Below are positions 22,256-53,765 of a stretch of DNA of 64,000 nucleotides, piece after piece. Numbering within the stretch: position 1 is the stretch's first letter; the number at the start of each line of letters is the position of its first letter. The stretch lies in NCBI GenBank assembly GCA_947630815.1, contig CANRJD010000001.1, positions 34,127 to 98,126 on the forward strand, given 5' to 3'. Origin of the DNA: an uncultured Akkermansia sp. Its GTDB lineage: Bacteria > Verrucomicrobiota > Verrucomicrobiia > Verrucomicrobiales > Akkermansiaceae. Made by a program: the position numbers and the translations under genes. The notes below the pieces were generated by a model, which did no database searches, had not been told where the DNA came from, and was given only the letters and a program-made list of their open reading frames with translations.

Positions 22256-22350
22256 ACAATTATATACGACAGGGTTAAGATAAGCTCTTAAATAGTCCCT
22301 ATCCAAAAGCCAATATATCATTTATTATCAGGACGGACGAGGGAAAGATA

Positions 22351-22380
22351 TGATGGGCATTTCTATGAGTCCATCAATGG
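22351..22380 (+). repeat. hsdS inversion site IR1-left
   Basis: tgatgggcatttctatgagtccatcaatgg, exact reverse complement of 26411-26440. Confidence 0.92.
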
Positions 22381-24457: not shown

Positions 24458-24464
24458 GTCCCTA

Positions 24465-25028: not shown

Positions 25029-25035
25029 GTCCTGT

Positions 25036-26640
25036 TCAATTGTTTAGAGTTTTGAGTAATAAGCCTAATCTGTTGCAAATGCAAACTTGCTCTTCTGCCG
25101 GAGGAATTGGGCATAGAAGCTTCTTTAGCATTGATTGAGTCACCTGATAAATAGTCGTTGTGTTGGCATCATCTAGCTGTTCTCTAAAAAGCCGAGACGA
25201 GAAAAAATAATACAAATATCGATTTGATACAGAAATAAATTTGGCCATAAACGCTCCATAGGCATCACCATTTCTTTCTACTATGGCCGTTTTTCCCACC
25301 AAGTTTTTGCTCCCATTTCGTGCACAAATTAGCAAATCTCCCTGATTTATATAAGCTCTATCCGGGATTTTCATTTCTACGTGTAGTACGTCGTCATAGC
25401 TTATTTTTCCATTTTGGATGTTGTTAGCCCTTAGAACAGCAGTTCCTTTTTCTCGGACATCACTAGGACTGTATGTGAGCCCTATATAAGCTTCTCCTAC
25501 CTGTTCTAGCCTACACCATACCCAATTTTCAGGTAAATCAAAGGGGATTTCATCACTAATATCCTTTTCAGAACCATCAGAAAAAATCTCATGATAGGTA
25601 GCATGAGTCTTACTACCACGCCTCTCGATTCTGCTCATTGATTTAGCCGCCTTTTTGCCCAGTTTGGTGGTGCGTTCCTGAGCTATGCGTTCCAGTAGAA
25701 CAGTTGCAGGCTCGTCATTCGGATTTTGAGGAACGAGTTGTCCTTGGATGGCCGCCTGTATGAGCTGTTGGCGCAAACTTGTGGGAGTTTCTGAGAGAAT
25801 GCGTTTATAATATCGACGGGAGATGGATATTGTTTCTAATTTTTCAAATAACGAAGCTATCTCATTTACTATATTCTCTTGTTCTTTAGCCGGAGGAATG
25901 GGAATAAGTAAATTTTCTAAAACTCCTATATAAAGTTCTTTTTGATTTGTGCTTCCAGAGAGATTTTCTTCTAAATATTTTTGAGTTTCTACGGATTCAA
26001 CAAAGGAAAAAATGAAAAAGGAGTTAATAGCATTGAATGTGCGTACAACTGTTACATGCGAATCAGGTACAGTAAAGGGATAATGCCCTAAACACGATTC
26101 GTTGAAAACTCGCGTTCTACATACAGTACCTGTTCCTGTTGAATTGATTAAAATATCACCACTTTGCAATTTATATGCCTCTTGCCATTTTTCTATAGTC
26201 TTAGGGTCAAGAAATCGTGCTTTTTCTAGAGAAACACCTCCTTCTTTCAAGTTGCATTTTTGAGCAAAGACTGGATACTTTTTTTCAGTTTCAGAGTACT
26301 TAGGTGATTTCCCCCTTGATAGAAAAGAGCATACAGAAGTCAGCCTACACCATTCCCAACTATCCGGGGTTTCAAAGGGAATATCGTCATCTATACAGGT
26401 TGCTTCCCCTCCATTGATGGACTCATAGAAATGCCCATCACGTCTAAAGATTCGGGAGGTACTCTTGGGCTTCTTTATTTTCCTCTCCCTAATCAGTCTC
26501 TCTCGCTCCTCGGCAATACGTTCCAACAGCTTAGACGCGGGCTCGTCCTCAGGATTTTGAGGAACCAGTTCTCCTCGAATTGCAGATTCGAGTATCTTCT
26601 TACGCAGGGCATCAATGATGCGTTCTATCTTATCGCTCAT
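25036..26640 (-). CDS. hsdS: Type I R-M specificity subunit (expressed allele TRD1a+TRD2a)
   Basis: AIRGELVPQNP.DEPA twice, PDSWEWCRL/PENWVWCRL, IPP..EQ; ATGA overlap with hsdM. Confidence 0.95.
   Translation of the reverse strand: MSDKIERIIDALRKKILESAIRGELVPQNPEDEPASKLLERIAEERERLIRERKIKKPKSTSRIFRRDGHFYESINGGEATCIDDDIPFETPDSWEWCRLTSVCSFLSRGKSPKYSETEKKYPVFAQKCNLKEGGVSLEKARFLDPKTIEKWQEAYKLQSGDILINSTGTGTVCRTRVFNESCLGHYPFTVPDSHVTVVRTFNAINSFFIFSFVESVETQKYLEENLSGSTNQKELYIGVLENLLIPIPPAKEQENIVNEIASLFEKLETISISRRYYKRILSETPTSLRQQLIQAAIQGQLVPQNPNDEPATVLLERIAQERTTKLGKKAAKSMSRIERRGSKTHATYHEIFSDGSEKDISDEIPFDLPENWVWCRLEQVGEAYIGLTYSPSDVREKGTAVLRANNIQNGKISYDDVLHVEMKIPDRAYINQGDLLICARNGSKNLVGKTAIVERNGDAYGAFMAKFISVSNRYLYYFFSSRLFREQLDDANTTTIYQVTQSMLKKLLCPIPPAEEQVCICNRLGLLLKTLNN
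26411..26440 (-). repeat. hsdS inversion site IR1-right
   Basis: Exact inverted copy of 22351-22380. Confidence 0.92.
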
Positions 26641-28052
26641 GCTTCGGAAGTTTGGTCGGAGTTAAGGAGAGCTTCAAGGGCAGCAAAGGCTTTATTTTCC
26701 TTTTGTAATTCCTCCTTGAGCATCTGCATCAAATCTTCAATGGAGCCCTCGATAGTATCAACTTCATCTTTGAGCCATTTGATATCCAGAGATGTTTTAT
26801 CGCGCTGCAAAATCTCCTCGTAGGTATAGCAACGCCATCTTTCATCCTGCACCGCATGCCGGTCGGGAGCCTCGTACGCTGCAATAAATCCGGCAAAGTA
26901 TTCCTCCTTCAGAGGATTAGTTTTGCCAAAGGAGGGCATGTTGGAGCGGAGATCGTAGATCCATACCTCTGAGGTATTGCCTTGGTCTGTTCTGCCTCGG
27001 GTGAAGAAAAGGACATTTGTTTTTACTCCCTGCGCATAGAAAATGCCGGAGGGTAAGCGGAGAATGGTGTGAAGATTACACTTCTCCATTAGGTCTCGGC
27101 GTACTAATTCACCATCGCCATCCGCAAAGAGGACATTATCCGGCAGAACAACCGCAGCTCGGGCGGTTCCCGTAGTTTTAAGACTCCGGTAAATATGCTG
27201 CAGGAAATTGAGCTGCTTATTACTGGTGGGGAAAGTCAGGTCATCTCGAGTGGCCCGTTCGCCGCCTCGTTTTGTGCCAAAAGGAGGATTTGCGAGTACC
27301 AAATCATACGTCCGGAGTACTTTACCTGCATTCGACAATGTATCAGCGCATAATATATGCCCATTGATGCCGTGGAGCATGGCATTCATGAGAGCCAAAC
27401 GGTGAGTGTCTTTAACTAACTCGGTTCCGGTAAAAGCAACTTCATTTTCAAAGCGAGCCGCTTCCTCATCAAGGTCAAAGAAATCGTCCGTGTGTTCTCT
27501 CACATATTGGCTAGCTGCTATCATGAAGCCGAACGTACCGCAAGCCGGGTCGTTACACAATTCTCCAGGCTGGGGCTTCATCAGCCGTGTTATCACATTA
27601 ATCAGGACGCGAGGCGTGAAATATTGACCAGCCCCGGATTTCTTCTCATTAGCATTCTTCTCCAAGAGTCCCTCGTAGAGATTACCTAATCCCTCCTCGC
27701 GAGCAGAGAACCAGTCGAGCTGGTCAATTGTAGTGATTATTTTCTCCAGATTTTTAGGCTCGGAAATATTTGAGACAGCTTCATCATAGATGGCCTGAAC
27801 GCGGCCGGTGCATTCAGTGCCCAGATGATCCAACAATTTTTTATAGAAAGACTTCAACTCCACACCACTGCGAGCGGTTAGGTTGTCCCAACGATATCCT
27901 TCCGGAATCTGCGTTTCCGTACCCGTTTCTTTTGCCATTTTAAGGAAAAGGATGTAGGTAAGCTCAGTAACGTACTGGTGGTATGTAATGCCGTCATCGC
28001 GTAAGACGTTGCACAGGTTCCAGAGTTTGGTGATAATTTCTTGAGTAGTCAT
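26637..28052 (-). CDS. hsdM: Type I R-M methyltransferase (EcoKI-like)
   Basis: KLWNLCNVLRDDG, GQYFTPR, DPACGTFG, NPPF. Confidence 0.96.
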   Translation of the reverse strand: MTTQEIITKLWNLCNVLRDDGITYHQYVTELTYILFLKMAKETGTETQIPEGYRWDNLTARSGVELKSFYKKLLDHLGTECTGRVQAIYDEAVSNISEPKNLEKIITTIDQLDWFSAREEGLGNLYEGLLEKNANEKKSGAGQYFTPRVLINVITRLMKPQPGELCNDPACGTFGFMIAASQYVREHTDDFFDLDEEAARFENEVAFTGTELVKDTHRLALMNAMLHGINGHILCADTLSNAGKVLRTYDLVLANPPFGTKRGGERATRDDLTFPTSNKQLNFLQHIYRSLKTTGTARAAVVLPDNVLFADGDGELVRRDLMEKCNLHTILRLPSGIFYAQGVKTNVLFFTRGRTDQGNTSEVWIYDLRSNMPSFGKTNPLKEEYFAGFIAAYEAPDRHAVQDERWRCYTYEEILQRDKTSLDIKWLKDEVDTIEGSIEDLMQMLKEELQKENKAFAALEALLNSDQTSEA

Positions 28053-30928
28053 GCAGATTGTGTGGTATCGAGGTTATAAAGGTATTGATTAAGTTCGTTA
28101 ATGAGTTCATGAAGCTGGTTGCCGAAGACTTTATTAAAGAAGGAGAATCCGCCTCTATTCCTGAATTGGGGAGCTTCATTGAATGAATCCACGGTTAGCA
28201 CCGTCTCATTGATTAGATATTTTTCGATGCGATCAAGCCAGTTTTGCTCGCTCTTGCTGAAATTATGGGTCTTTCGTAGCGTGTTCACAGCCTGCCGAAT
28301 GCGGTCTTCATGGTTCAGTAAAGGCGTCCCTAGTGCTTGTTTACGAATGATGCTGATAATATCAGCGGTAATTTCAGCATTGCTCATCTGGGAAAGGGCC
28401 GTATTGAGCTGTTGCACTGTGTACCCATCTCGGGCAAGGGCTCGTTTCAGCGATCTGAGGGAGTCTCGTGTCAGGTCAGAAGGTTTTGTACACACTATGC
28501 TCAGAGCCGTAATTTTGTCTCGGTTCTCTGTTACATATCGGGTAAAAGCTTTCAAGTAGTCTTCTGGGGTGTTGGTCCCATTGCCGAATCCTCGCGTATG
28601 TAGAACGTCGCCATCCGGCTTGTTGGAAATCAAGGTAGGGATGCCTTTAGGTTTCACCTTATCCAACCAAACGAATAGAGGTCGATGTTCTATCAATTCA
28701 ACCTTGGCTATATGGGTAGGCATATTCTTGATGTGTTCCATGAATCGCTGAGGGGTTTGCCCATCTGCATAGTCTGCAAAATGCTCATTGAAAGAATCCA
28801 CCTCACCGTTCTGGAGTCGCTGCACTTTGCGGCGCAGCTTGGCAATAATCTGCACCACCTGAGCCTCGATTTGTTCCTGTTCTTCAAGCTTGTGCAAGCC
28901 GTCTACAAGTTCAATAAAAGACACATAGGGATTCACTCCCACCGGCTGCATTGTGTCAACATCCTTTAAGGCCTCACAAACGCCAACGCAATCGTAAATA
29001 TCGAAGTGGTCTTTGTGTATCTCCGGGCAGAGGCGTGTCGCTCGACCTTTCATCTGTTCATACAGGATACGCGACTTTACCTGACGCATGAACACCAGAT
29101 TAGTGATGGACGGAACATCCACGCCCGTTGTCAGCAAATCAACAGTTACAACGATAGACGGATATTCCTCGTTTTTGAATCTTCGAATAGCCATTTTAAT
29201 TCGGTCTTTATTGCCGTTGGCCACACGTCCCGTAATCTTAAGGATAGCATCGTTACTCACTCCTGTTTTGGCATAAATTTCACGGAGTATTTCCACTATT
29301 AAATCAGCGTGTTGATCATTGACAGCATAAATTAAAGTCTTGCCTTGAGTACTGGAAGCTTCCGGGTCTATATGATGAGCCACTTCTTTGAGTACTTCCC
29401 TGTTAAAGGCCTCTGTAATGACTCGTCGGTTGAAATGCTCAACAGCAAAATCCATTTCATCTTCTAATTCCCATGAGCGAATATTTATGCGGGGCGAGTA
29501 GCCTGTCACTGTTTCACCTTTCTTGAAATGAATGCCCTTCCGGCTCAGTTCTGTGGAAATAAGATGCGGGGCGTCGTGGTCAACAAGATAGCCGTCAAGG
29601 ACAGCTTCAGGGTAAGTATAGGTATACACCGGCTCTCCAAAAATCTGAGTTGTGTGCAATGCCGGAGTAGCAGTTAACGCAATCTTAACAGCATCGAAAT
29701 AATCAACGACATAGCGGTACTTGCTCTGATAATCACGCTGGTCCCGGAAAAGGATTTCCGTATCACTCATTTCCCTGTCAAATATATATCCTCGGTGAGC
29801 TTCATCAATGATTATTAAATCGTAGTCAGATACAGCCGGGCGAGTATCATTGTCTCCGCAATACAGGATACGTTTAACTAGGCCTTGGACAGTAGAAACA
29901 TGGATTTTGGTTTCCTTTTCTACAGTTGTGTCGTCGAGCCCTTTTATATCGTAGATTTCATCTAACGTCATGAGCTCCTCTAATTTGACCTCTTTGAAAA
30001 CGTCTAGTGCCTGTGTGCCCAGCTCAGTTCTATCTACAAGGAAGAGGATTCGGCGAAAGCGTTCCGTTTTGAGGAAACGATATATCATGCCCAGCACGGT
30101 ACGAGTTTTACCTGTACCAGTAGCCATGGCCAGCAAGGCCGATTTCTTGCCCTCCATGATGGCATCCTCTGCCGCTTGAATGGCATTGATCTGGTAGTAT
30201 CGCAACCCCAAGCCAGATGGGTTGCGCAGAAAATCATAAGGCAGCTCCTTCAGTCGTTCGTTCTTACTCACGATATCCTCCTTTAGTTTCTCCAGCATGC
30301 CATCCGGGCTCATCCATCCCAGCAGAGCGGACGGTATGTTGCTTTTTTTCCTCAAATCCAGCCACCAGATGCCGGATTTAGTTTTGACCTGTTCGGAGTA
30401 ATCTCTGCCATTGGTTGTAAAAATGAACGGCACATGGTATTCCTCCCATTCGCCTATGCAAAGGGAATAATCGCAACGACGAACACTTCGGGCATATTCT
30501 TTCCCCTGAAAATCAATTTCTGATGCTACATCTTTGCCCGACTTCTTAGCCTCTATGAAGCCGACTAGCTTTTCCTCGACGAATAAAGCATAATCTGCGG
30601 CTCCTCCGTCAACCACATCCGAATCAACAGGCCATTCGGCTATTGCCATGTTGCGTCCTTTCGCCGGACGAGTGCCATTAGAATATCGAAGCTCCTTAGT
30701 GTTAGCCTCCCATCCAACTTGCCTTAACTGTTTATCTATAAGCTCACGCGTCTCTTTCTCTGTCAACTCGTTCCGCGCGAATTGACCGGAGTAAGAATCT
30801 AAAAAAGAATCCTCCTTCATATTGTATGCCATTCTGTAAGTCGTAGACGCGGAGCAATGTACCATGAAAACTCGAAGTAAGCAAGGAAAAGTATGATAGG
30901 ATTTTACTATCATACTTTTCCTTCTCAA
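28049..30928 (-). CDS. hsdR: Type I R-M restriction subunit (start probably about 30830)
   Basis: ADY...IEAKK nuclease, MATGTGKT, DEAHR, TATP, QMKGRATR. Confidence 0.95.
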   Translation of the reverse strand: MRRKSMIVKSYHTFPCLLRVFMVHCSASTTYRMAYNMKEDSFLDSYSGQFARNELTEKETRELIDKQLRQVGWEANTKELRYSNGTRPAKGRNMAIAEWPVDSDVVDGGAADYALFVEEKLVGFIEAKKSGKDVASEIDFQGKEYARSVRRCDYSLCIGEWEEYHVPFIFTTNGRDYSEQVKTKSGIWWLDLRKKSNIPSALLGWMSPDGMLEKLKEDIVSKNERLKELPYDFLRNPSGLGLRYYQINAIQAAEDAIMEGKKSALLAMATGTGKTRTVLGMIYRFLKTERFRRILFLVDRTELGTQALDVFKEVKLEELMTLDEIYDIKGLDDTTVEKETKIHVSTVQGLVKRILYCGDNDTRPAVSDYDLIIIDEAHRGYIFDREMSDTEILFRDQRDYQSKYRYVVDYFDAVKIALTATPALHTTQIFGEPVYTYTYPEAVLDGYLVDHDAPHLISTELSRKGIHFKKGETVTGYSPRINIRSWELEDEMDFAVEHFNRRVITEAFNREVLKEVAHHIDPEASSTQGKTLIYAVNDQHADLIVEILREIYAKTGVSNDAILKITGRVANGNKDRIKMAIRRFKNEEYPSIVVTVDLLTTGVDVPSITNLVFMRQVKSRILYEQMKGRATRLCPEIHKDHFDIYDCVGVCEALKDVDTMQPVGVNPYVSFIELVDGLHKLEEQEQIEAQVVQIIAKLRRKVQRLQNGEVDSFNEHFADYADGQTPQRFMEHIKNMPTHIAKVELIEHRPLFVWLDKVKPKGIPTLISNKPDGDVLHTRGFGNGTNTPEDYLKAFTRYVTENRDKITALSIVCTKPSDLTRDSLRSLKRALARDGYTVQQLNTALSQMSNAEITADIISIIRKQALGTPLLNHEDRIRQAVNTLRKTHNFSKSEQNWLDRIEKYLINETVLTVDSFNEAPQFRNRGGFSFFNKVFGNQLHELINELNQYLYNLDTTQSA

Positions 30929-31299
30929 ATCAGGACGGCAAAGAGACGATGGTTGGAAAGGTTAAAAAGCTATTATTGTTTGTACAAATTTATGAGATAA
31001 GTGCATCCACGCGTACCTACGCTGGGCTGCTCGTTCACCAATTCTTCATGCTCCTTCCCCCTAGCTTTTTCTCGCTCACTCCATCACCCCTACCATCTTT
31101 CCGACGGTTGCCCTTCTTAACTGCTTCCCTGCGTTGCGGAAATCTCCCCGTTCGTGGTCATCTCCGGGGATCTTGGAGGGTTATCACATGTATAAGGATG
31201 CACCTGGGATAGACTGCCTTCTTTCCGTAGCGTTGTAACAATATCACTAATACTCATTGTAGTACTGCCCTTACCCTCTGCCGCTTTTTCCCTTTCCTC

Positions 31300-31662: not shown

Positions 31663-31968
31663 TCAGTAAGTTTCCTCCAGCACCCGAGCCATTTCCTCCG
31701 GGGGCATATTCAACGCGCGGAACAAGCGGGTGCGCATCATGCGCGTGATGCCCAATGCCTGCATTGCGGCCTTCACGGAAAGGAACACGCCGTTATGAAG
31801 CATGCGCTCTACCATAAGGGCGTTTGCAAGGTGAACGGCCCGTTTAGAGGGCCTGTGGCCCTTTTTGAGTACGGGTGCCGGGTTCCCGGGGGCGCAGGGG
31901 CGAAGCACCTTGCCGCCCTTGGCATTGAGCCCCAGCGAAAAGCTCATTGTATCCGTGGTGATGGACAT
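31663..31968 (-). CDS. Small HTH-like protein downstream of the serine recombinase
   Basis: LANAL...L.NG...SV...M..LGIT pattern; overlaps the recombinase end. Confidence 0.55.
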   Translation of the reverse strand: MSITTDTMSFSLGLNAKGGKVLRPCAPGNPAPVLKKGHRPSKRAVHLANALMVERMLHNGVFLSVKAAMQALGITRMMRTRLFRALNMPPEEMARVLEETY

Positions 31969-33239
31969 GCCGTGTATCGGTTCAGTTTCAGGCTCTGGGC
32001 ATCGGCATCATAAGTGATGCTCTCATACAGAGCGTGGAAGATTGTATCTAGCGCGGAATCCGACATACGGCCCACCAGTCCCTCAATATTGGCGAGAGCC
32101 TCGCTGATATCCCCGCGCTCAATGTGAGGCAGCTTCTGCTGCAGCACTGCGAGCACGTCCTTATCTCTGGCTAGGGTAGCCAGATGGAGGGCGACGGCCT
32201 TTTCTACCGTCTCGGCGGAGAAGCCGGTGAAAGCGCACTCGCCCGGCTTCTTCTTATGGGTGCCGCAAACATAGTACCGGCGGATTGTGCCCCGGCGGTT
32301 ATTATAAACCGAATACAGCACGCGGCCGCAATCCGGGCAACACAGGATGCCACGCAGAGGGTACACCAAGGAATCATGTAAATCTGTGCGGAGCTGCTTG
32401 GTGCCCTGTGCTGCCATCACTTTGTTGGCCTTATTCCAGAGGGTCTCTGTGACCAAGGCCTCATGCTTGCCCGGGTACTCCTCCCCCTTGCTGGTGATAA
32501 CCCCGATGTACAAGCGGTTGCGTATGATGCGGCGCACCGCCTCAGAGTTCCACGCTTTGGGTTCAGTCTGGGCCCCGCGAGTGCGCTGCATGGCTGCACC
32601 GGTATCGTTGAGCCACTTTGCTACTTCACCCGGGTGTTCACCCGCGGCAACCTTAGCGAACATCGAGCGCACGGCCTCTCCCTCGGTGGGGTCAATGTGA
32701 AGGAAGCGGCGGTCATCCAACACGTACCCATACGGCGGACGGCCTGCATTCCACATGCCTTGCTGTGCCAATGCTGCGGCCTTGTGCGAGATACGCTCGC
32801 GGGTCATGTCGCGCTCGAACTCGGCGAAGGATGAAAGCAGATTGATCAACATGCGGCCCACGGGAGTGGAGGTATCCACGTTCTGGGTGACAAGCACCAG
32901 CGATACCCCGAGCTCGTCAAACTCGTGCGTCAGGTTACTGAAATCACGCAGGGAGCGAGAAAGACGGTCCAGTTTGTAGGATACAACCACGTCTATCTTG
33001 CCGTCGCGGGCATCCTGCAGCAGGCGCTGCATCTCCGGGCGGTCCATGGTACCACCGGACACGGCCACATCCGAGTAGGTGTCCGCGTGCACCCAGCCTT
33101 GGGCTGCGTGTGCGACAATATGCTTGATACAGCTATCAATCTGGGCATCAATGGAAGTAAAGGCCTGCTGCATGCCGAAGTCGGTGGACTTGCGGGCGTA
33201 AACCGCGCAGCGCTTGTACGCAAGTGGAGAATCGGTCAT
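31944..33239 (-). CDS. Large serine recombinase (integrase)
   Basis: YARKST catalytic Ser, DVAVSG, LDRLSR, PPYGY, zinc ribbon CPDCG...YYVC...C. Confidence 0.93.
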   Translation of the reverse strand: MTDSPLAYKRCAVYARKSTDFGMQQAFTSIDAQIDSCIKHIVAHAAQGWVHADTYSDVAVSGGTMDRPEMQRLLQDARDGKIDVVVSYKLDRLSRSLRDFSNLTHEFDELGVSLVLVTQNVDTSTPVGRMLINLLSSFAEFERDMTRERISHKAAALAQQGMWNAGRPPYGYVLDDRRFLHIDPTEGEAVRSMFAKVAAGEHPGEVAKWLNDTGAAMQRTRGAQTEPKAWNSEAVRRIIRNRLYIGVITSKGEEYPGKHEALVTETLWNKANKVMAAQGTKQLRTDLHDSLVYPLRGILCCPDCGRVLYSVYNNRRGTIRRYYVCGTHKKKPGECAFTGFSAETVEKAVALHLATLARDKDVLAVLQQKLPHIERGDISEALANIEGLVGRMSDSALDTIFHALYESITYDADAQSLKLNRYTACPSPRIQ

Positions 33240-33784
33240 TTTGTAGAAAAGGAAGTGTTTGTGGAAAAGAAACGGTTGCCGGAGATACGGAACCCTGCGA
33301 TTTCACGGGCCACGGCGGTGAGTGATTTGTAGGTGGCGCCGTCGTATGCGAAGCGGCCACCGTCTAGGGCGTACACCGTGTATATACGCCCATTAAACGC
33401 TTTCTGGGCAAAGGCACCTGGAGTGGCAAGGCGTGCCGTGGGTGAGGCGGAATCTACGGTTTCCGCCTTTGGCGCTGCCGGGATGATTTGCTCCTGTACC
33501 TTGGGGCTCTGGCAGCGCACATAAGGGGAACGCTCGCGCAGATGAGTGAGGTCGGCCAGCTGCTCCGCTTTGGTGACGGCCGAGGCTGCCAGTCCGCCGT
33601 AACACAGGCATCGCAGTCGCCATGCGATACGGCGACGCAGCAGAGCGTAATTATGCGAGTAACATGCGGTTCCCCACACGCGGCCCCATTCCTCCCTGAG
33701 TTCTCGGGGGCTCATGGAGCTGAGGGCCGCTATGCGCAGCTCCAGCTCCTTTTCCGTGATACATGGCTTGATGGTGTACGGCAT
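33236..33784 (-). CDS. DUF2924-family protein
   Basis: ELREEW...LRRRIAWRL...GGL...YKSLTAVAREIAG..ISGNRFF. Confidence 0.85.
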   Translation of the reverse strand: MPYTIKPCITEKELELRIAALSSMSPRELREEWGRVWGTACYSHNYALLRRRIAWRLRCLCYGGLAASAVTKAEQLADLTHLRERSPYVRCQSPKVQEQIIPAAPKAETVDSASPTARLATPGAFAQKAFNGRIYTVYALDGGRFAYDGATYKSLTAVAREIAGFRISGNRFFSTNTSFSTK

Positions 33785-33801
33785 ATCTTCGGGGCGTATG
33801 T

Positions 33802-34476
33802 TTAGGCATCCATCTCGGCGGCTTCACCGGCGTCGGCCACAATCTTGGCGTCGGGCATCACCTCCTGAGCGGGGATGCGCTTGCCGGCGACACCGAAGAA
33901 CTTACGACCGGAAATGTTCTTGTAGCCGGTGATGGCGCGGGCGGCGTGTGTCAGGGAGCGGAACTCTGTACCAAGCTCGCCCATATCGATGTCCATGGAA
34001 ACAGAACCGTCCTCATTCACGATAGCCGTGTAAAGCTGGCCCTTATAGATTTTCTGGAGCTTGGTACCACCCTCGGGCAGCGGGGTGAACATGCCGAAGA
34101 TACCAGTGAGGGACTTGGGGGCACAGGACTTGCGCTGCTTGGCGGGTCCCTGCTGCTCTGCTCCGTCGGGGGCCTCTGCTACTTCAACACCGGGCTGCAG
34201 CTCGGTTTGATTCTCCCACGGAGCGGTGTCCATCACGAACTGGAGGGCGGCATTGCTGAGGGTGGCGGCTAGGTGAGAGTTGCCGTCTTCGTCCACGGTG
34301 TTGTGGGTTTCAACGAGGCCCTTCTTTTTGAGGACGGTGAGGAGGCCCTTCTGCTGAGCGGTGAGCGGCGTGGGGAGAAGCACCTCATTGCCCGGAACCT
34401 CATTCATGTGAACGATGGTCTGAAGGAAAGAAGCGGCAGTGGAGCTGATGGTGTTTTTGATGTCGATATTATTCAT
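33802..34476 (-). CDS. Protein with a C-terminal DUF2924-like domain
   Basis: GTKLQKIYKGQ...FRSLTHAARAITG..NISGRKFFG. Confidence 0.7.
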   Translation of the reverse strand: MNNIDIKNTISSTAASFLQTIVHMNEVPGNEVLLPTPLTAQQKGLLTVLKKKGLVETHNTVDEDGNSHLAATLSNAALQFVMDTAPWENQTELQPGVEVAEAPDGAEQQGPAKQRKSCAPKSLTGIFGMFTPLPEGGTKLQKIYKGQLYTAIVNEDGSVSMDIDMGELGTEFRSLTHAARAITGYKNISGRKFFGVAGKRIPAQEVMPDAKIVADAGEAAEMDA

Positions 34477-45883: not shown

Positions 45884-46501
45884 ATGGGCTCCGGTGTCAT
45901 TTCTCGCGAAGTTGCCGACAAGATACTCGATGCCGACTTCGCCAACATTGTGCAGAAGGTTAAGGACGGTAAGACGCTATCCTCAACCGAGCGTGCCCGC
46001 GTACAGGCCCGTGCGGCCGGTAGTACCGAGACGCTATCGGTGGCCAAGACGGTTGTGGAGCTAGCCGCCGCGTTGGGTGTCACACGTCGAACAATTAGCG
46101 CGTGGCGTAAATTACCGGGGGCCCCGCAGCCCGCCGCCAACGGTAGCCATTCCGTGACCGCATGGCGTGATTTCGTCCGCGAGAATAGCCTGAAGGGAAG
46201 CGGTGAAATCACTGGTGGTCAGGTAGAAGCCCTGAAGGCACGCAAACTATTGGCTGAGGTGGAAGAACGCGAGTTGAAAGTGGCCGTGAAAAAAGGCGAG
46301 TACGTTCTCATTGAAGACGTGCGCCGCCGGTGGGTGATGCTGGTGGGCAAGGCTATTGCCCTCATGCGCGCCAAGTTCGAGAACGAGCTGCCGCCCATCA
46401 TGAGCGGGCTCGATGCCCAAGGAATCCGGGAGGAATCCGGCAAAGCAATCGATGAGATTTGCCGCTTGCTCCATACGGGAGAAGGAGAAAAATCGGCATG
46501 A
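45884..46501 (+). CDS. Terminase small subunit (Nu1-like)
   Basis: HTH ELAAALGVTRRTISAW, LKARKL...EL...KGEY; upstream of the large subunit. Confidence 0.75.
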   Translation: MGSGVISREVADKILDADFANIVQKVKDGKTLSSTERARVQARAAGSTETLSVAKTVVELAAALGVTRRTISAWRKLPGAPQPAANGSHSVTAWRDFVRENSLKGSGEITGGQVEALKARKLLAEVEERELKVAVKKGEYVLIEDVRRRWVMLVGKAIALMRAKFENELPPIMSGLDAQGIREESGKAIDEICRLLHTGEGEKSA

Positions 46502-46818
46502 GCTCGGTATTGGAAAATCGCTTTCTTCACCTGTGGGAACACAAAGGCGGGGCACCGTTGGAGCGTGAGTACCGCTTTCACCCGGAGCGCCGATGGAAGG
46601 CCGACTTTGCCCACCTTGGTAGCCGCACCATTATCGAAATCGAAGGCGGTGTCTGGTGCCATGGTCGTCATACGTCACCCAAGGGCTTCATGGCAGACGC
46701 CGAGAAATACCTCACGGCTACATTGTCCGGTTGGACTGTAATACGCCTGACATCACCCCAGCTAACACCGGAAATCATTGAGCAGGTAATCGAATATGTC
46801 CGCAGCAGAGAAACTTGA
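46498..46818 (+). CDS. Small PD-(D/E)XK endonuclease
   Basis: EYRFHPERRWKADFA...IEIEGG...EKY...GW. Confidence 0.8.
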   Translation: MSSVLENRFLHLWEHKGGAPLEREYRFHPERRWKADFAHLGSRTIIEIEGGVWCHGRHTSPKGFMADAEKYLTATLSGWTVIRLTSPQLTPEIIEQVIEYVRSRET

Positions 46819-48547
46819 CCGTATATGGAGGGAGGCATGGAGACCTCCGGACCGCCAACCCGTGTGGAGGTGGGCCGAGGAACACGTGCGCTCCATACCG
46901 TACAGTCCGATGCCCGGACGTTTTCGCGTTGAAAACTCCCCCATGATTAGGGAGGTCATGGAGGCTATCGTTGACCCGCGTATACGTCTGGTCAGCATCA
47001 TTGCATCCGTGCAGAGCAGCAAGACGACCGCGCCGGAAATAACCCTCTGCTACATCATTGCCAATTTACCCGGGCCCACGCTTTGGCTGGACCAGACCGA
47101 CGAGGATGCCAAAGACCAAAGCGAAGGACGCCTCCAAAAGCTTTTTGATGAATGCGCCCCGGTGCGCGAGCTATACCCGGCCGACCGTAACAAGAAGCGC
47201 AATGCCACCATACACTTTGCAAACGGCATGACCCTGTGGGTGGCCGGTGCCCACAATAAGAGCAACCTGCAGCGCCGCTCTATCCGCTGGCTCATCGGTG
47301 ATGAAACGTGGCGGTGGCCCGCTGGGCACATGGCTGAAGCCGAGGCCCGCGTGACCGCTTTCGGTTGGCTGGGCAAGTGCATCTTCATGAGCCAAGGCGG
47401 CTTTGAGGGAGACGATACCCATCGCAAGCATGATACCACCGACCAGAGGGAATGGCACTTCGTCTGCCCTCATTGCGGGGCCCGGCAGCCGTACCTGTGG
47501 CGCAATGTTCAGTGGGCCAAAGATTGCCAAACTGATGACGGAGAGTACGACTACCGTTATGTCCGTGATACCGCGCGTCTGGTGTGCAATAAGTGCTCGC
47601 ATGAGTTTGAGGATACCGATGAGAACAGACGCAGGCTCAATGCCTCTGGGTGCTTTGTTGCCCGTAACACCAAGGCGGCCAAGGAGAATGTCGGTTTTCA
47701 TTGGAACGCGTTATCCACTATGTCTTGGGGGGAACTGGCCGAAATGTACCTGCGCGCCAAGGTAGCCGCCAAGAAGGGTGATATCACGCTTCTGCAGCAA
47801 TTCTACCAGAAGCGCTTGGGCCTGCCGTGGAACGAGTTCACCGAGGATTACACGATTGAGCAAAGCCTGTCCGACTATCTCATGGACGAGCCTTGGGAGG
47901 AGGAAGGCAAGTTCAACGGTGTGCCACTCCGTGTGCTGACTGTCGACGTGCAGAAGGACCATTTCTACACCGTAGTGCGGGCATGGAGCCCCACAGGTTC
48001 ATCCCGCCTGATTCACTGTGAAAAGGTATTCTCGTGGGAGGCTCTTCGCGGGCTGCAGAAGCTCCACGGAGTCAATGATAATCTGGTCTTTCTGGACTGC
48101 GGTTACAGTACATACGACGTGTACGCGAAGTGCGCTGAATGCGGGTGGTATGCCCTTATGGGTGACCGCAAATCAACCTTCACTCACCGGACCAAAAACG
48201 GAAAGATGATTCAGCGCTTCTATTCGCCCAAGCGACGCGTCAGCGTAAGCCGCGACCGCGTGGCCACCATGTTCTATTGGAGCAATCTCAACATCAAGGA
48301 TTCACTGGCCCGACTGCGTAAGAATATCGACGGCCCCACGTGGGAGGTACCAAAAGACGCGCCCCAGGATTATCTCGATCAACTGGATTCAGAGCACCGC
48401 GTGTTTGAGCGTGGACGCTGGATCTGGAAGCAGAACCGTAATCGGGCCAACCACTATTTTGATTGTGAGGCCATGCAGGTGGCCGTTGCCAGCATGCTGA
48501 AACTCATTGGACAGGAAAATGCCAATGAGGATGGGGCCTCTATGTAA
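46796..48547 (+). CDS. Terminase large subunit (lambda gpA family)
   Basis: SVQSSKT, GDE, CPHCG, VDVQ, FLDCGY, NHYFDCE. Confidence 0.92.
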   Translation: MSAAEKLDRIWREAWRPPDRQPVWRWAEEHVRSIPYSPMPGRFRVENSPMIREVMEAIVDPRIRLVSIIASVQSSKTTAPEITLCYIIANLPGPTLWLDQTDEDAKDQSEGRLQKLFDECAPVRELYPADRNKKRNATIHFANGMTLWVAGAHNKSNLQRRSIRWLIGDETWRWPAGHMAEAEARVTAFGWLGKCIFMSQGGFEGDDTHRKHDTTDQREWHFVCPHCGARQPYLWRNVQWAKDCQTDDGEYDYRYVRDTARLVCNKCSHEFEDTDENRRRLNASGCFVARNTKAAKENVGFHWNALSTMSWGELAEMYLRAKVAAKKGDITLLQQFYQKRLGLPWNEFTEDYTIEQSLSDYLMDEPWEEEGKFNGVPLRVLTVDVQKDHFYTVVRAWSPTGSSRLIHCEKVFSWEALRGLQKLHGVNDNLVFLDCGYSTYDVYAKCAECGWYALMGDRKSTFTHRTKNGKMIQRFYSPKRRVSVSRDRVATMFYWSNLNIKDSLARLRKNIDGPTWEVPKDAPQDYLDQLDSEHRVFERGRWIWKQNRNRANHYFDCEAMQVAVASMLKLIGQENANEDGASM

Positions 48548-48835
48548 GCAAGGTTTCAATAATCGTAGTGGGCGTCTTTCTGCTCGCAGTATCCGTGGGA
48601 CAGGACATCATCTCGAGCTTTCAGCCACTGCTTTATCTCTTTTCGTCGTTCGTTGGCCGCGCATAAAGCACTCTCCAAGAACTAAAAACGCCACATTTGA
48701 CTCCATGTGACGCGATTGCTAGGGCTCCGCGTTAGTTTTCCCAGACCGGGGTGTTCCTACCCTTGTTGACGCCGTTGGAGGCCTTGCTGGGCGTAATACA
48801 TCTAACCGTCACCTTTTGACATGCCAGCTGGGGGT

Positions 48836-49420
48836 ATGGATATCCCGATTTTCTGCGCACACACGAAACAAGAAGACACGGCAGCCTTAGTGCCGAACCC
48901 GCGCAACCCCAACACGCACCCGAAGAAGCAGATTGAGCTTCTCGCCAAAATTATCAAGGCACAGGGCTGGCGTAATCCCATCGTTGTATCGAACCGCTCC
49001 GGCTTTGTGGTAAAAGGCCACGGTCGGCTTGCAGCCGCACAACTACTGGGCTGCGATAAGGTCCCGGTTGATTATCAGGACTACGCCAACGAGGCTATTG
49101 AATGGGCCGACATGGTGGCCGATAACCGCATCGCTGAACTGGCTGAGCTCGACGACAATACACTCAAGAGCGTGCTTGAAGATTTGCGGGGCCGGATTGA
49201 TATCGACCTGACGGGCTTTACCGTGCCGGACATCGAAGCCATGCTGGAGGAGAAGCAAGGGGGCAACGCCGAGAGCGAGGACAGCATAGGTGATACCGAG
49301 GGTATCACCGTCTCTCAGCAGTACGGTGTCATCGTCATGTGTGAATCCGAAGGCGAACAGGAGAAGACATACAACAAGCTCGTAGAAATGGGCTACACCT
49401 GCAAGGTTGTTGCCGTATGA
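48836..49420 (+). CDS. ParB-N/Srx-like domain protein
   Basis: LVPNPRNPNTHP, GWRNPIVV, GHGRLAAA, ADNRIAE. Confidence 0.88.
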   Translation: MDIPIFCAHTKQEDTAALVPNPRNPNTHPKKQIELLAKIIKAQGWRNPIVVSNRSGFVVKGHGRLAAAQLLGCDKVPVDYQDYANEAIEWADMVADNRIAELAELDDNTLKSVLEDLRGRIDIDLTGFTVPDIEAMLEEKQGGNAESEDSIGDTEGITVSQQYGVIVMCESEGEQEKTYNKLVEMGYTCKVVAV

Positions 49421-50577
49421 AGATAGAGGTACATAACCGCGTGGACGATTTCAACAGCTATCGTGCCGCACGAGTGAAAAGCCTGTTCAATGCCCAGAAC
49501 GGGTGCAACTTTGATTTGAGCATCGATGCCGACATGGGCGATGATTGGAATATCGGCGTTGTGGTTGGTCCCTCGGGCTCGGGCAAGACCAGTATCGGCA
49601 AGGTCATATTCGGTGAGAACCTGATACACGACTACACACGCGGGTGGGATGCCGACAAGCCTATTGTGGATTGCATTGCCCCCAATGGTGATTTCAATGA
49701 GGTTACCGGTGCGCTTGCCAGCGTAGGTCTTGGCGACGTGCCCGCATGGTTGCGTCCCTTTCACGTATTATCCAACGGCGAGCAATTCCGTGCGGGGCTG
49801 GCCCGCGTGCTTTGCGAGAAGCCGGAGCGTGTGGTCATGGATGAGTTCACCTCGGTGATTGACCGTCAGATTGCACGCATTGGCTCCATGGCGTTTGCCA
49901 AGAGCTGGAGACGCGGCAACCCCACAGGAAAAGTTGTTCTTCTTACCCCTCATTACGACGTGCTCGATTGGATTCAGCCGGACTGGATTATCGATACCAA
50001 GACCGGGCACTTTGAGAGGGGGTGTCTTCGGCGACCCTCATTTGAGCTCGAAATTATCAAGACGAACGGCAGTTATTGGAAGTACTTTAAGCCTCATTAC
50101 TATCTGAAATTGCCCATGCCTCCGGCCGCGGAGTACTTCGTGGGTCTTGTAAACGGTGAGCTGGCTTGTCATCTGGCCGTGTGCCCGTTCTTTACTGCCC
50201 CGGGGTACCGTGCAACCCGTCTGGTTACCATGCCGGAGTGGCAAGGTGCCGGTGTGGGTACCCGTTTTCTGAACTGGGTCTGCCAATACCATTTGGATGG
50301 CAAAGGCCGATGCGGCCGACACCTGCCGACCTATTTCCACACCAGCCACCCTCAACTGGTTGCTGCTTTGCGCCGCTCACAGCTCTGGATTCAGACCTCG
50401 GCCGTGTTGTACGGCGGAAACAAGGAGCGCAGCCGAAACTCGCTGCGCCGTTCACACAGAAAAAAGATGGTGCCCGGGAGGAACGGGAAAATAAAGACGC
50501 TGCCTATGGACGGTACCGGGTACGGTGGGCATTTCCGCGCCGTGCAAGGCTTCAAATACATAGGCAAACAATCATGA
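49417..50577 (+). CDS. ABC-type ATPase fused to a GNAT acyltransferase
   Basis: GPSGSGKT, LSNGEQ, MDEFTS; C-terminal RLVTMPEWQGAGVG; no TM segments. Confidence 0.85.
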   Translation: MKIEVHNRVDDFNSYRAARVKSLFNAQNGCNFDLSIDADMGDDWNIGVVVGPSGSGKTSIGKVIFGENLIHDYTRGWDADKPIVDCIAPNGDFNEVTGALASVGLGDVPAWLRPFHVLSNGEQFRAGLARVLCEKPERVVMDEFTSVIDRQIARIGSMAFAKSWRRGNPTGKVVLLTPHYDVLDWIQPDWIIDTKTGHFERGCLRRPSFELEIIKTNGSYWKYFKPHYYLKLPMPPAAEYFVGLVNGELACHLAVCPFFTAPGYRATRLVTMPEWQGAGVGTRFLNWVCQYHLDGKGRCGRHLPTYFHTSHPQLVAALRRSQLWIQTSAVLYGGNKERSRNSLRRSHRKKMVPGRNGKIKTLPMDGTGYGGHFRAVQGFKYIGKQS

Positions 50578-51206
50578 ATATCTTTCTCACAGGCCAAAAG
50601 AGCTTTGGCAAGGCGGTTTTCCTTGCCCTGCGTGAAGACGGGCACAACATCGTGGGCGTGGCACCGGCACCGCCCAAGAAGTATTACGACAAGCTCCATG
50701 GTATTGCCCTCCGTTACAATGTGCCGGTGGTATGTGATGCGGGTCGTCTCACGTCTGACCATATCCCCGAGGAAACAGACTTGATTGTAGCGGCCCATTC
50801 CCATTGGTTCGTATCCGACCAGGCTGTGAAGAAAGCACGCCTTGGGGCCATCGGATACCACCCGTCCTTGTTACCGCGCCACCGCGGACGCGATGCCGTC
50901 CGTTGGACCGTGGCCTGCGGGGACCCAATTACCGGTGGCAGCATCTACCGTTTGAACGATAAAGTGGACGGCGGCAATATCCTCATGCAGAGCCTGCAAT
51001 TCGTCGATAGAAACTGGGGCCATCATGAGCTATGGAAACAGCTGTTTCCTGCCGGTGTCAAGCTGGTTAGAGATAGCGTCAGGCTATTAGCCACCGAGGG
51101 ATTTGTGGAAGGCGCTCCTCAGGATGAACGCTTTGCCACGTGGGAGCCTCCCTTTGATCCCTCGGCCCGCTTGTTCAGGCCCGAGTTATTACAGTTGCCC
51201 CAGTAG
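50574..51206 (+). CDS. Formyltransferase (Fmt/PurN N-terminal domain)
   Basis: GYHPSLLPRHRG, TGGSIY, VDGGNI; ATGA overlap with the upstream gene. Confidence 0.88.
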   Translation: MNIFLTGQKSFGKAVFLALREDGHNIVGVAPAPPKKYYDKLHGIALRYNVPVVCDAGRLTSDHIPEETDLIVAAHSHWFVSDQAVKKARLGAIGYHPSLLPRHRGRDAVRWTVACGDPITGGSIYRLNDKVDGGNILMQSLQFVDRNWGHHELWKQLFPAGVKLVRDSVRLLATEGFVEGAPQDERFATWEPPFDPSARLFRPELLQLPQ

Positions 51207-51492: not shown

Positions 51493-52080
51493 ATGACCAT
51501 CAGCGAAATCCAGACTGATACGTGCTTCTGGCAGCGAATGCTGCGCCTTGCCGAGTACTACATGGGCAAGGTTGACGGCATTATGGGGCCTTTAACACGC
51601 GCAGCCGAGGCCAAGTGGTTGACCGCTGCGCAGCTTGCCGCCAAAGAATACGGCACCTACGACGGCCGCTCCGAGGCCGTTATTGCCACGCTGTTACCGC
51701 AGGCGCAGGTTTTGGCACGCAAGTGGATGTCCGCCGCCACAAAGGAGGCGGCGCGTCAGAGGGTATGCGTTAAGCTGATTGAAGGAACCCGCAGCTATAA
51801 GGAGCAGAATCGCCTGTATGCCAAGCGTCCCAAGGTTACCAATGCCCGAGGGGGAAGCTCATGGCATAACTTCGGGCTCGCTTTCGATTTTGGCGTGTTT
51901 TCTGAGGACGGCAAGAAGTATTACGGGGAAAGCACTCTCTACAAGGTGCTCGGCAATCTGGCTACGGCCATCCCCGGTGCCACGTGGGGCGGCACTTGGA
52001 CTAGTCTTGTGGACGAACCCCACATTCAACTGTCCATGTTTAACACCATCAAGGCCGCCCGCGAGGCCTTCGAGCAATAA
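51493..52080 (+). CDS. Endolysin, M15 family peptidase
   Basis: EGTRS..EQ..LY, SWHNFGLAFD, WGG.W...DEPH. Confidence 0.88.
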   Translation: MTISEIQTDTCFWQRMLRLAEYYMGKVDGIMGPLTRAAEAKWLTAAQLAAKEYGTYDGRSEAVIATLLPQAQVLARKWMSAATKEAARQRVCVKLIEGTRSYKEQNRLYAKRPKVTNARGGSSWHNFGLAFDFGVFSEDGKKYYGESTLYKVLGNLATAIPGATWGGTWTSLVDEPHIQLSMFNTIKAAREAFEQ

Positions 52081-52092
52081 TTCATCGCACCT

Positions 52093-52356
52093 GTGGCAAA
52101 AGGGGTATTCATCACAGGTTTTACCGCCGAAGAGGTCAAGGGCATACAGGCCAAAGCAAAAGCCCTCTTAATGGAGGGTAAGACCATCATGTCTTGGACA
52201 GACGGTGGCGGCACGTCTGTCACGAAGCAGTTGGTCATGCCGGTTGCTGAAGTGCTGGAGGAGTGTGCCTATGCATTACGCCGCCTCGAACCCGCCAACA
52301 CCACCGGTGCCGCATTGGCCCCAGGGTCATTTGTATCCTACCGCTTCCCATTATGA
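52093..52356 (+). CDS. Head-completion protein (gpW-like position)
   Basis: Small ORF coupled to the portal. Confidence 0.55.
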   Translation: MAKGVFITGFTAEEVKGIQAKAKALLMEGKTIMSWTDGGGTSVTKQLVMPVAEVLEECAYALRRLEPANTTGAALAPGSFVSYRFPL

Positions 52357-53765
52357 ATGCTTTTCAGAGATTAGCCGCAAGGCTGTTTTTCGGCGTGAAT
52401 TCCACCTATGAATCCGCTAACCGTTCTCCACGTCGTGCGCAGGTCCCTGGCTCTGCTCCACGCGACGCTACGCTTGATTTGACGCCTAGTGTTCGATCGG
52501 AGCTGGTTCGCCGCTCTCGATACTTGGTGCGCAATTCCGGTTTCATCCGTGAAATCGTCGGCAGCATGGCCCTGTACTCGGTGGGGGACGGTCTCAAGCC
52601 TCAGGCCGAAAGTATCGACCACGCATGGAACCGCAAGGCCGAAGCCTACTTCAACCTCTGGAGCCGCCATGCAGAACTGACCGGCCGCTTCAACCTGACG
52701 CAATGCGAGCACCTCATTTGCAGGGCCGTCGATACAGACGGCGAGATATTCATTCACAAGGTGATGAAGGACAACGCGCCAAAAATCCAGTTGATAGAAG
52801 CTCACCGCATCGGTGATTATTCCGATACGGATAGCTTTGTTGACGGGGTGAAGCAAGATGCCGACGGCAGTCCAGTTGCCTATCGTCTTATCAGGGACGA
52901 CGGCACACACGTGGACTTGCCCGCGGAACACGTGCTGCACGTATACGACCCGGATTCACCGTCGCAGGTGCGCGGGTGCCCCAGCTTGCAGCACTCCATT
53001 AACCACATCATCGATGAAATGGAGCTGCTGGCGCTAGAGAAGCATGCTGTGAAGGATAACGCTGACATAACACGTGTTCTGACTACCGCTCGCGACGATG
53101 CCGAGGACGGTGATTTTCAGTTGAGTGCAGTACGCCTCGCTGACGGCTCCGATACTTCATGGCTTCAGCGCATCCTTGGTGGCAAGCTGGTGAAGATTCA
53201 ACCGGGAGAAGATATCAAGCCCTTTGAGAGTTCACGCCCGAGCCCCACATTTACCGGCTTTCTTGACCACCTGCGCCGCGATTCCGCATTGGGCATGCTT
53301 CCGTTTGAATTCGCCGCGGATTCATCCAAGCTGGCCGGGTCCGGTGTCCGTCTGACGGTGGCTAAGGCTGACCGCCGCTTTTCATACCGCCAGACGCTTC
53401 TCATTGACCGCATGCTGCGACCGCTTTGGCTGTGGGTGATTGGGCATGCTATTACCACGGGCAAGCTCGAAGCGGTAGAGAATTGGACAGAAGTGAACTT
53501 CACCACGCCCCGCCGTGTCACTGTGGATGCCGGACGTGAAGCCATGCAAAATCGCGCTGACGTACAGGCCGGACTCAAGACGCTCAGCGACCACTTTGCC
53601 GAACTGGGTATGGATTTCCATGAGGAAATTGAGAACCGCGCCCGGGAGATGCACCATATTAAAGAAACTGCCGCGAAATACGGCATTCCCCCGCAGTTGC
53701 TCTTCGACTCTTTCAAGGTTGCAATGACAACTTCTGCCTCATCTGACACCCAAAAAACGCCATGA
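52353..53765 (+). CDS. Portal protein (lambda family)
   Basis: LVRRSRYL.RN, VGDG, DGEIF, QVRG.P, VD..RE. Confidence 0.9.
   Translation: MNAFQRLAARLFFGVNSTYESANRSPRRAQVPGSAPRDATLDLTPSVRSELVRRSRYLVRNSGFIREIVGSMALYSVGDGLKPQAESIDHAWNRKAEAYFNLWSRHAELTGRFNLTQCEHLICRAVDTDGEIFIHKVMKDNAPKIQLIEAHRIGDYSDTDSFVDGVKQDADGSPVAYRLIRDDGTHVDLPAEHVLHVYDPDSPSQVRGCPSLQHSINHIIDEMELLALEKHAVKDNADITRVLTTARDDAEDGDFQLSAVRLADGSDTSWLQRILGGKLVKIQPGEDIKPFESSRPSPTFTGFLDHLRRDSALGMLPFEFAADSSKLAGSGVRLTVAKADRRFSYRQTLLIDRMLRPLWLWVIGHAITTGKLEAVENWTEVNFTTPRRVTVDAGREAMQNRADVQAGLKTLSDHFAELGMDFHEEIENRAREMHHIKETAAKYGIPPQLLFDSFKVAMTTSASSDTQKTP

Follow-up and report, generated by a model that had tools for sequence, protein, structure and literature searches.

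Three coupled genes and their products

The stretch of DNA analysed here, referred to below as the window, comprises 64,000 nucleotides of a contig from an uncultured Akkermansia sp. (GenBank assembly GCA_947630815.1, contig CANRJD010000001.1, positions 34,127 to 98,126, forward strand) and contains a prophage, which spans from about 31.9 kb to past 64 kb. A cassette of 2.4 kb, composed of three genes, is located in this prophage, with the large terminase on one side and the portal on the other. It encodes a ParB-N protein (P0001), an ABC ATPase fused to a GNAT domain (P0002) and a formyltransferase (P0003). The genes, which are co-translated, are joined by ATGA start/stop overlaps at 49417-49420 (P0001/P0002) and 50574-50577 (P0002/P0003). 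An initial annotation had described three ATGA-coupled genes beside the terminase together with a series of motifs; the coordinates, the overlaps and all the quoted motifs were found. The copy present in the window is an intact, ordinary member of its family, and its features and those of the slot that it occupies are as follows.

46796-48547, + strand: TerL, large terminase (phrog_15, E 6.5e-86), left edge of the variable cargo slot
48816..48838, + strand: TTGACA-N14-ATG element 5' of the ParB gene
48836-49420, + strand: P0001, ParB-N protein, 194 aa
48836..49246, + strand: ParB-N (ParB/Srx) head domain of P0001, residues 1 to ~137, ending in an IDIDLTGF linker
49304..49420, + strand: C-terminal mini-domain of P0001, ~40 aa, with conserved Q-Y/F-G-V, DE..Q and G-Y/L..KVV
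49417-50577, + strand: P0002, ABC ATPase fused to GNAT, 386 aa
49417..50031, + strand: ABC nucleotide-binding domain (NBD) of P0002, residues 1 to ~205, all catalytic motifs intact
50032..50577, + strand: GNAT domain of P0002, residues ~206-386
50574-51206, + strand: P0003, stand-alone folate-type formyltransferase, 210 aa, no Fmt C-domain
51493-52080: M15 peptidase gene, between cassette and portal
52263-53765, + strand: portal, right edge of the slot

P0002 carries a Walker A motif (GPSGSGKT), the signature LSNGEQ, the Walker B/catalytic pair D142-E143, an H-loop histidine (H179) and a GNAT motif A (QGAGVG). In Pfam, it matched ABC_tran at 8e-8 and GNAT weakly (3e-3), while an end-to-end match (residues 1-385, E 4.8e-146) was obtained with phrog_11143, a family of mainly viral sources annotated as of unknown function. 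When 68 diverse homologues were aligned, the columns of Walker A (S53, G54, G56, K57), of the signature (L118, S119, G121), D142-E143 and H179 were invariant, as were those of GNAT motif A (R268, Q276, G277, G279) and several further GNAT residues. Because these catalytic and cofactor motifs are invariant, both the ATPase and the acyl-CoA-type transferase of P0002 look functional as judged from conservation. The Q-G-x-G form of motif A would favour an acyl-coenzyme A (acyl-CoA) as the donor. No permease-like gene adjoins P0002, whose neighbours are the ParB, formyltransferase, M15 peptidase, terminase and portal genes, in agreement with the initial annotation. A role as an ABC transporter was rejected: P0002 is fused to a GNAT, and there is neither a permease partner nor a fused transmembrane domain.

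The AlphaFold2 model of P0002, built on the 68 diverse homologues (predicted local distance difference test, pLDDT, 90.4; predicted template modelling score, pTM, 0.85), showed an NBD without coiled-coil insert (~1-205), the GNAT domain (~206-330), a basic linker of low confidence (~330-375) and a last strand that rejoins the GNAT sheet. When the whole model was submitted to Foldseek, only transporter NBDs were matched (E about 3e-8), which gave no functional hint. Folded alone, the GNAT domain (pLDDT 87) adopted a plain, generic GNAT core, for which comparison with solved structures by VIA and Foldseek placed dozens of acetyltransferases, acting on proteins or small molecules, at Z scores of 11-14. 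The Mom protein of phage Mu (8bv8), to which the GNAT had first been likened, came at rank 40 (Z 11.8, root-mean-square deviation 2.7, 134 aligned), and many unrelated GNATs scored Z 12-14. In addition, the Mom Pfam family gave no match in P0002 at E<=0.1, and the helix-turn-helix-like (HTH-like) insertion of Mom was absent from the GNAT model. Because the domain is generic and many GNATs score alike, the modelled structure does not reveal the substrate.

P0003 matched Formyl_trans_N (PF00551) over residues 4-144 (E 3e-19) and phrog_9240 (E 3e-50); no match to Formyl_trans_C (PF02911) was listed at E<=0.1, as expected from the initial description of a formyltransferase lacking the Fmt C-domain. 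The loop HPSLLPRHRG, His96 and Asp132 were invariant in 30 homologues, and the position of the Asn in the PurN/Fmt triad was occupied by an equally invariant Gly94. The closest solved relative was the N-terminal hydrolase domain of 10-formyl-tetrahydrofolate (10-formyl-THF) dehydrogenase (E 1.5e-23, residues 1-191). Sugar N-formyltransferases and Fmt were much further away, at about 1e-11 (Fmt chains E 2e-11 or weaker), and PurN chains gave E values of 1e-5 to 6e-4 only. P0003 resembles the ALDH1L1 hydrolase domain, Fmt, PurN and ArnA in its PF00551 fold, in its YHPSLLPRHRG motif and in having the catalytic His and Asp, but it differs from them as a stand-alone protein of 210 aa without C-terminal subdomain, carrier or dehydrogenase domain, and with Gly94 for Asn.

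Three assignments of P0003 to characterised enzymes were discarded. It is not an Fmt, as the PF02911 C-domain is missing and the protein stops at residue 210; it is not a PurN-type glycinamide ribonucleotide transformylase, as Gly94 interrupts the Asn-His-Asp triad; and it is not a 10-formyl-THF dehydrogenase (ALDH1L1), as the alignment covers the first ~200 residues only, with no carrier-like or aldehyde dehydrogenase domain. The prediction of a complex between P0002 and P0003 gave a score of 0.00, which speaks neither for nor against binding.

The third protein, P0001, matched Pfam ParB_N at E 6.4e-5 (23.4 bits, under the gathering score of 26.3), and its head matched PHROG ParB families at 1e-36 to 1e-41 (phrog_620, E 1.3e-36). 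The top PHROG, phrog_498 (E 5.7e-41), is a 'DNA methyltransferase' family, and the match extends over the ParB head. Spo0J aligned with residues 15-91 only, no HTH family match was listed in the Pfam scan, and the neighbouring open reading frames (ORFs) scanned contained no parA-like gene. With a ParB_N score below the gathering threshold, a length of 194 aa, no HTH match and no parA-like neighbour, P0001 was rejected as a canonical ParABS partition protein. Its C-terminal end (residues 161-194) is matched by a distinct family, phrog_28816.

Gene linkage and slot contents in related phages

The P0002 family is large. Its relatives comprised 3147 representatives of 50%-identity clusters, 505 of them at E<=1e-30, and more than 5000 90%-identity clusters at E<=1e-10, many of which are 70-80% identical to P0002 across different phyla. 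By tblastn, homologues were detected in 78 deposited phage genomes, including phages of Porphyromonas, Burkholderia (phiE255), Gordonia, Leptospira, Lactococcus (P335), Streptococcus, Nonlabens and Tenacibaculum (pT24). In some ABC-GNAT homologues (P0269, P0219), Hint and LAGLIDADG inteins are inserted inside the ATPase domain.

Gene linkage was surveyed in 80 IMG/VR viral loci whose ABC-GNAT is 33-75% identical to P0002, using iterative hidden Markov models for each partner. A ParB-like ORF was found directly upstream of the ABC-GNAT gene, on the same strand, in 75 of these 80 loci. In a second, reciprocal survey, 77 loci were retrieved with the formyltransferase (42-79% identity), of which 74 had enough room upstream to be assessed: the ABC-GNAT gene was directly upstream of the formyltransferase in all 74, and the ParB-like partner upstream in 72. 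Judged from this gene order, the linkage of the ABC-GNAT to the ParB adaptor described below was shown to be obligatory. These counts, which answer the call for a neighbourhood survey made with the initial annotation, support the view that the three genes form one functional module.

The linkage of the formyltransferase is of another kind. In the 80-locus survey, it was found directly downstream of the ABC-GNAT gene only in the clade that shares 46% identity or more with P0002 (in about 19 of its 24 loci) and was never present in the 33-41% identity clade; in the sampled loci of this distant clade, the ABC-GNAT gene is followed by TerS and TerL or by small unassigned ORFs. Since every assessable formyltransferase locus has an ABC-GNAT gene directly 5', while the ABC-GNAT gene often occurs without a formyltransferase, the dependence appears to be one-way: the formyltransferase is, on this genomic evidence, a dedicated satellite of the ABC-GNAT, which does not require it.

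The ParB protein itself is modular. Its C-terminal mini-domain exists as a separate mini-ORF directly 5' of the ABC-GNAT gene in phiE255 (gp28), in Porphyromonas phages and in IMG/VR loci, and the ParB protein was reduced to its last 50-70 residues in 7 of the 80 IMG/VR loci. Fused ParB_N-ABC forms also occur (P0171, and the N-extended P0151, P0164 and P0184). Because of these head-less loci, stand-alone mini-ORFs and fusions upstream of the ABC-GNAT, the ~40-aa mini-domain looks like the real adaptor to the ABC-GNAT, and the ParB head like a module attached to this adaptor. Examples of the stand-alone ORF are found at L001:3876-4004 and L002:3840-4004. In Porphyromonas phage records, this mini-domain ORF carries the label 'acr candidate', probably in error.

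Most members of the family have the module just 5' of terS/terL. In the Mu-like phage phiE255, the pair of mini-ORF and ABC-GNAT gene comes after the tail-fibre genes, the place occupied by mom in Mu, and this position agrees with a role in DNA modification. In streptococcal prophages, an ASCH-domain gene follows the ParB, ABC and GNAT genes (phiNIH1.1, L007:4511-4888). ASCH was rejected as a general partner, as the 80 IMG/VR loci yielded one weak match, ~5 kb upstream of the module.

The contents of the TerL-portal slot were then compared between related phages. In those with a TerL ~80% identical (L088-L092), the slot holds the same trio, a ParB::PAPS-reductase fusion (PAPS, 3'-phosphoadenosine 5'-phosphosulfate), a TudS-like gene and the M15 peptidase. 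Phages with a TerL 67% identical (L098, L101) have a second ParB-type gene in the slot and no trio, and in L098 this gene encodes a ParB::N6_N4 DNA methylase. In L103 and L109, TerL runs almost straight into the portal. Over the phages that carry ParB fusions in the slot, TerL identity ranges from 67 to 81%.

Over residues 3-137, the P0001 head shares 60% identity with the head of the ParB::N6_N4 DNA methylase fusion and 68% with the head of the ParB::PAPS-reductase fusion. At one genomic position, the same head module is therefore joined to a DNA methylase, to a DndC/IbrA-type enzyme or, via the adaptor, to the ABC-GNAT. This head identity within the same slot is the new element brought by the present analysis, and it bears out the earlier statement that terminase-adjacent ParB-N genes accompany DNA-modifying enzymes. 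Because the ParB head of the ABC-GNAT recurs fused to a bona fide DNA-modifying enzyme in the same slot, the shared head and shared slot provide good contextual evidence that the ABC-GNAT probably acts on DNA.

The ParB::PAPS-reductase and TudS-like (2-thiouracil desulfurase family) pair is found right after the trio (L090:11418-13027; also L088, L089, L092 and L141). It is a candidate pair for a sulfur-based modification of DNA or nucleotides.

Proposed acylation of phage DNA and its alternatives

The acylation of DNA by ABC-ATPase and GNAT proteins has already been predicted by Iyer et al. (Viruses 2021, PMC7824862, citing Iyer, Zhang, Burroughs and Aravind, NAR 2013). The idea is not new, and the cassette is a member of a known, predicted family. 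With the ABC-ATPase + GNAT 'DNA modification system' predicted there (PHROG 11143), P0002 has the domain fusion and the phage context in common; it has a single NBD with all ABC motifs, a C-terminal GNAT with motif A and a ParB-like partner upstream. Moreover, Tenacibaculum phage pT24, an example named in PMC7824862, is among the tblastn matches of P0002 (H32/H33). A literature search, with the text of Iyer et al. 2013 outside its scope, found no link of a formyltransferase to the ABC-GNAT system. It also returned nothing for a formyltransferase with ParB or GNAT in phage DNA modification, nor for N4-acetyldeoxycytidine in phages.

Several characterised systems resemble the cassette in part. 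Mom combines a GNAT fold with a late phage function, as the cassette does, and is the proven precedent of a GNAT acting on double-stranded DNA (PMC13219725). However, Mom is a single protein with no ATPase, a Gly-tRNA(Gly) donor and an essential HTH-like insertion (PMC13219725), whereas P0002 retains the acyl-CoA motif A. For the ParB component, a ParB-like protein has been shown experimentally to be required by, and to activate, phage T-dioxygenases (5mYOX; PMC13229309), and the ParB-like DpdB assists DpdA, as summarised in PMC12839542. These two systems, together with DndB of Dnd (PMC12839542, PMC10853773) and the ParB::methyltransferase fusions, associate a ParB-N/NTPase-fold protein lacking a canonical DNA-binding domain with a DNA modifier, like the cassette. 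In the latter, the partner is an ABC-GNAT, linked via a distinct ~40-aa mini-domain that can be a separate protein. TmcA and NAT10, which form N4-acetylcytidine (ac4C) in RNA, follow the same logic of an NTPase and an acetyl-CoA GNAT acting on a nucleobase, but they have a helicase-like instead of an ABC ATPase, other accessory domains (DUF1726, tRNA-binding) and an RNA substrate. P0002 was not assigned to this family, as its ATPase is of the ABC class and the alignment with NAT10 is limited to GNAT motif A (E 0.0056).

From the gene structure, domain identities, intact motifs and linkages observed, we infer DNA as the substrate, and with it a role for ATP, a donor, a target base and a benefit. 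We propose that bases of the replicated phage DNA are acylated in an ATP-dependent reaction assisted by ParB, for which the formyltransferase would probably provide a formyl donor; we consider this about evenly balanced between right and wrong. The cassette would be a late-expressed phage module that modifies DNA after replication. The ParB-N head of P0001 would serve as a generic module for targeting, priming or activation on DNA, which the small C-terminal adaptor ties to P0002. The ABC domain would dimerise on ATP and clamp, open or remodel the DNA for the GNAT, which in turn would move the acyl group from acyl-CoA onto the exocyclic amine of a base. The compound ac4C is stable in RNA. For this reason, and because N6-acyl adenine has been reported to be unstable (PMC13219725), the most plausible target would be cytosine N4. 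The purpose of the modification could be the evasion of restriction or of other DNA-targeting defences.

Family members that lack the formyltransferase would draw on a common donor, e.g. acetyl-CoA, and leave N-acetyl marks. In the formyltransferase clade, which includes the present prophage, P0003 would most likely take the formyl group from 10-formyl-THF and provide a donor not supplied by the host, e.g. formyl-CoA, so that the mark would be N-formyl instead of N-acetyl. The hydrolase domain of 10-formyl-THF dehydrogenase passes the formyl group to a phosphopantetheine thiol, a group that is also carried by CoA, and formyl-CoA would be the chemically simplest candidate. Alternatively, P0003 might place the formyl group on an amine of the product. 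Since both clades keep motif A, an acyl donor bearing an amino group is considered less probable. The fully specified version, in which P0003 makes formyl-CoA or an equivalent thioester and the ParB-guided ABC-GNAT uses ATP to write an N-formyl base mark such as N4-formylcytosine, is put forward tentatively and is, in our estimation, doubtful.

Of the interpretation first given to the locus, the single functional module is retained and DNA modification is its best-supported function. The two-step acyl/formyl scheme fared less well: the formyltransferase is optional and confined to one ABC-GNAT clade, and the supply of an acyl donor fits at least as well. The likeness to Mom was not upheld either, the domain being a generic GNAT that keeps the acyl-CoA motif, where Mom uses Gly-tRNA (PMC13219725). 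'Packaged DNA' was an inexact designation of the substrate, as any modification would precede or coincide with packaging. The suggested protection against the type I system nearby is purely speculative.

Several points weigh against DNA acylation as proposed. The support for DNA as substrate comes wholly from gene context. The nearest folds of the P0002 GNAT are RimI, Naa50/60, ElaA and HP0935, i.e. protein and small-molecule acetyltransferases, and the structural comparison with Mom and TmcA that had been suggested at the outset revealed, by Foldseek and VIA, no special affinity to either of them, nor to Fem or L/F-transferases. Most members of the ABC-GNAT family work without any formyltransferase, and P0003 might rather direct its formyl group to an amine, either of the product or of a small molecule. 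To our knowledge, the synthesis of formyl-CoA by a PF00551 enzyme has not been described. Finally, the instability of exocyclic N6-acyl groups on adenine, reported in the Mom study (PMC13219725), limits the possible products.

These nearest folds, protein N-acetyltransferases among them (RimI, Naa50/60/80, HP0935), would fit an ATP-regulated protein acetyltransferase acting on a host or phage protein of the nucleoid, of transcription, of defence or of packaging, with ParB as regulator or substrate. Phage GNATs that acetylate host proteins are indeed known, such as Rac of phiKMV, cited in PMC7824862. Nevertheless, this explanation is unlikely: the ParB head is 60-68% identical to heads fused with a DNA methylase or a PAPS reductase, the cassette sits in a slot used by DNA-modification cargo, and a dedicated folate formyltransferase would have no obvious role. 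The coupling of an ATPase to a GNAT in TmcA and NAT10, the weak profile match to NAT10 motif A (E 0.0056), the distant relationship of P0003 to Met-tRNA formyltransferase and the ASCH gene after the module in Streptococcus phage phiNIH1.1 could all be read as signs of RNA modification, either a TmcA-like, ATP-dependent formation of ac4C on tRNA or an aminoacyl-tRNA chemistry with Fmt-like formylation. However, the ATPase belongs to the ABC class, unlike the helicase-class ATPase of TmcA, and Pfam and Foldseek detected no tRNA-binding domains; Formyl_trans_C, the tRNA-binding part of Fmt, was not among the matches listed for P0003. The ASCH gene was not beside the module in the 80 viral loci (the single weak match lies ~5 kb upstream), and the ParB linkage and slot contents point to DNA, so that an RNA substrate seems to us quite improbable.

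A free nucleotide or small molecule could also be the substrate, in a pre-replicative base modification or in the production of a nucleotide signal or metabolite, with ParB/Srx as the NTP-binding partner. The characterised PF00551 enzymes act mostly on small molecules or carrier-bound groups, the prophage itself encodes a family-A DNA polymerase, and ParB folds bind various NTPs (PMC12704722). Against this, the cassette lies in the late region beside the packaging genes, and the scanned prophage ORFs, several of which have no family, include no dNTP-processing gene (kinase, dNTPase, hydroxymethylase). The cassette is also found in a Mu-like phage, and such phages replicate with host polymerases. 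We grant this explanation the same slight probability as an RNA substrate. The location of the module directly 5' of terS/terL in most family members, and the ParB-SMC (structural maintenance of chromosomes) partnerships known in bacteria, would agree with a non-enzymatic packaging accessory, in which ParB and an SMC-like ABC clamp assist the terminase in locating or condensing DNA, the GNAT being vestigial. This is very improbable indeed, as GNAT motif A and other GNAT residues are invariant in 68 diverse sequences, the ABC domain has no coiled-coil insert, and the pair comes with a dedicated formyltransferase whose active site is intact.

If the acylation of DNA by this cassette were confirmed, N-acylation or N-formylation of DNA bases would represent a natural DNA modification of a new class, encoded in thousands of phages of many phyla, abundant gut prophages included. 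It would bear on the evasion of restriction and defence and on the sequencing-based detection of modified bases and, in enzymology, on an ATP-driven GNAT acting on DNA, on ParB as a modular activator and on a possible folate-to-CoA transfer of formyl groups. The formyl-CoA/N-formyl version would add an undescribed DNA modification chemistry and an undescribed route to formyl-CoA. To this question the present copy contributes nothing unique apart from a clean, intact example and a useful comparison with phages that carry ParB::methylase or ParB::PAPS-reductase in the same slot. The cassette is compact (2.4 kb) and thus directly testable in E. coli.

The surrounding prophage

Other features of the prophage are listed below.

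31944-33239, - strand: serine integrase, head of the leftward prophage arm
33236-34476, - strand: two neighbouring DUF2924 genes, beside the large serine recombinase at the prophage end, leftward arm
45884-46501, rightward arm: TerS

The leftward arm also contains a PD-(D/E)XK nuclease and a helicase. In the rightward arm, a family-A DNA polymerase and a DUF5906 protein precede TerS and TerL, and the portal is followed 3' by a protease, the major head protein and the tape measure.

The TTTGACA element attributed to the cassette from the start was located, with TTGACA at 48816, 14 nt ahead of the ATG of the ParB gene. The arrangement TTGACA-N13/14-ATG occurs 8 times in the window for 1.05 expected, and all 8 copies are on the + strand, between 43327 and 61968, directly 5' of late-gene start codons. 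Because the spacing to the ATG is too short for a conventional -10 box and leader, this element might act as a special late promoter or as a signal for translation, or else reflect a leaderless arrangement.

A low-G+C island (40-46%, for 54-60% around it) adjoins the prophage integrase at window positions 22000-31000; it appears to be an acquisition separate from the prophage.

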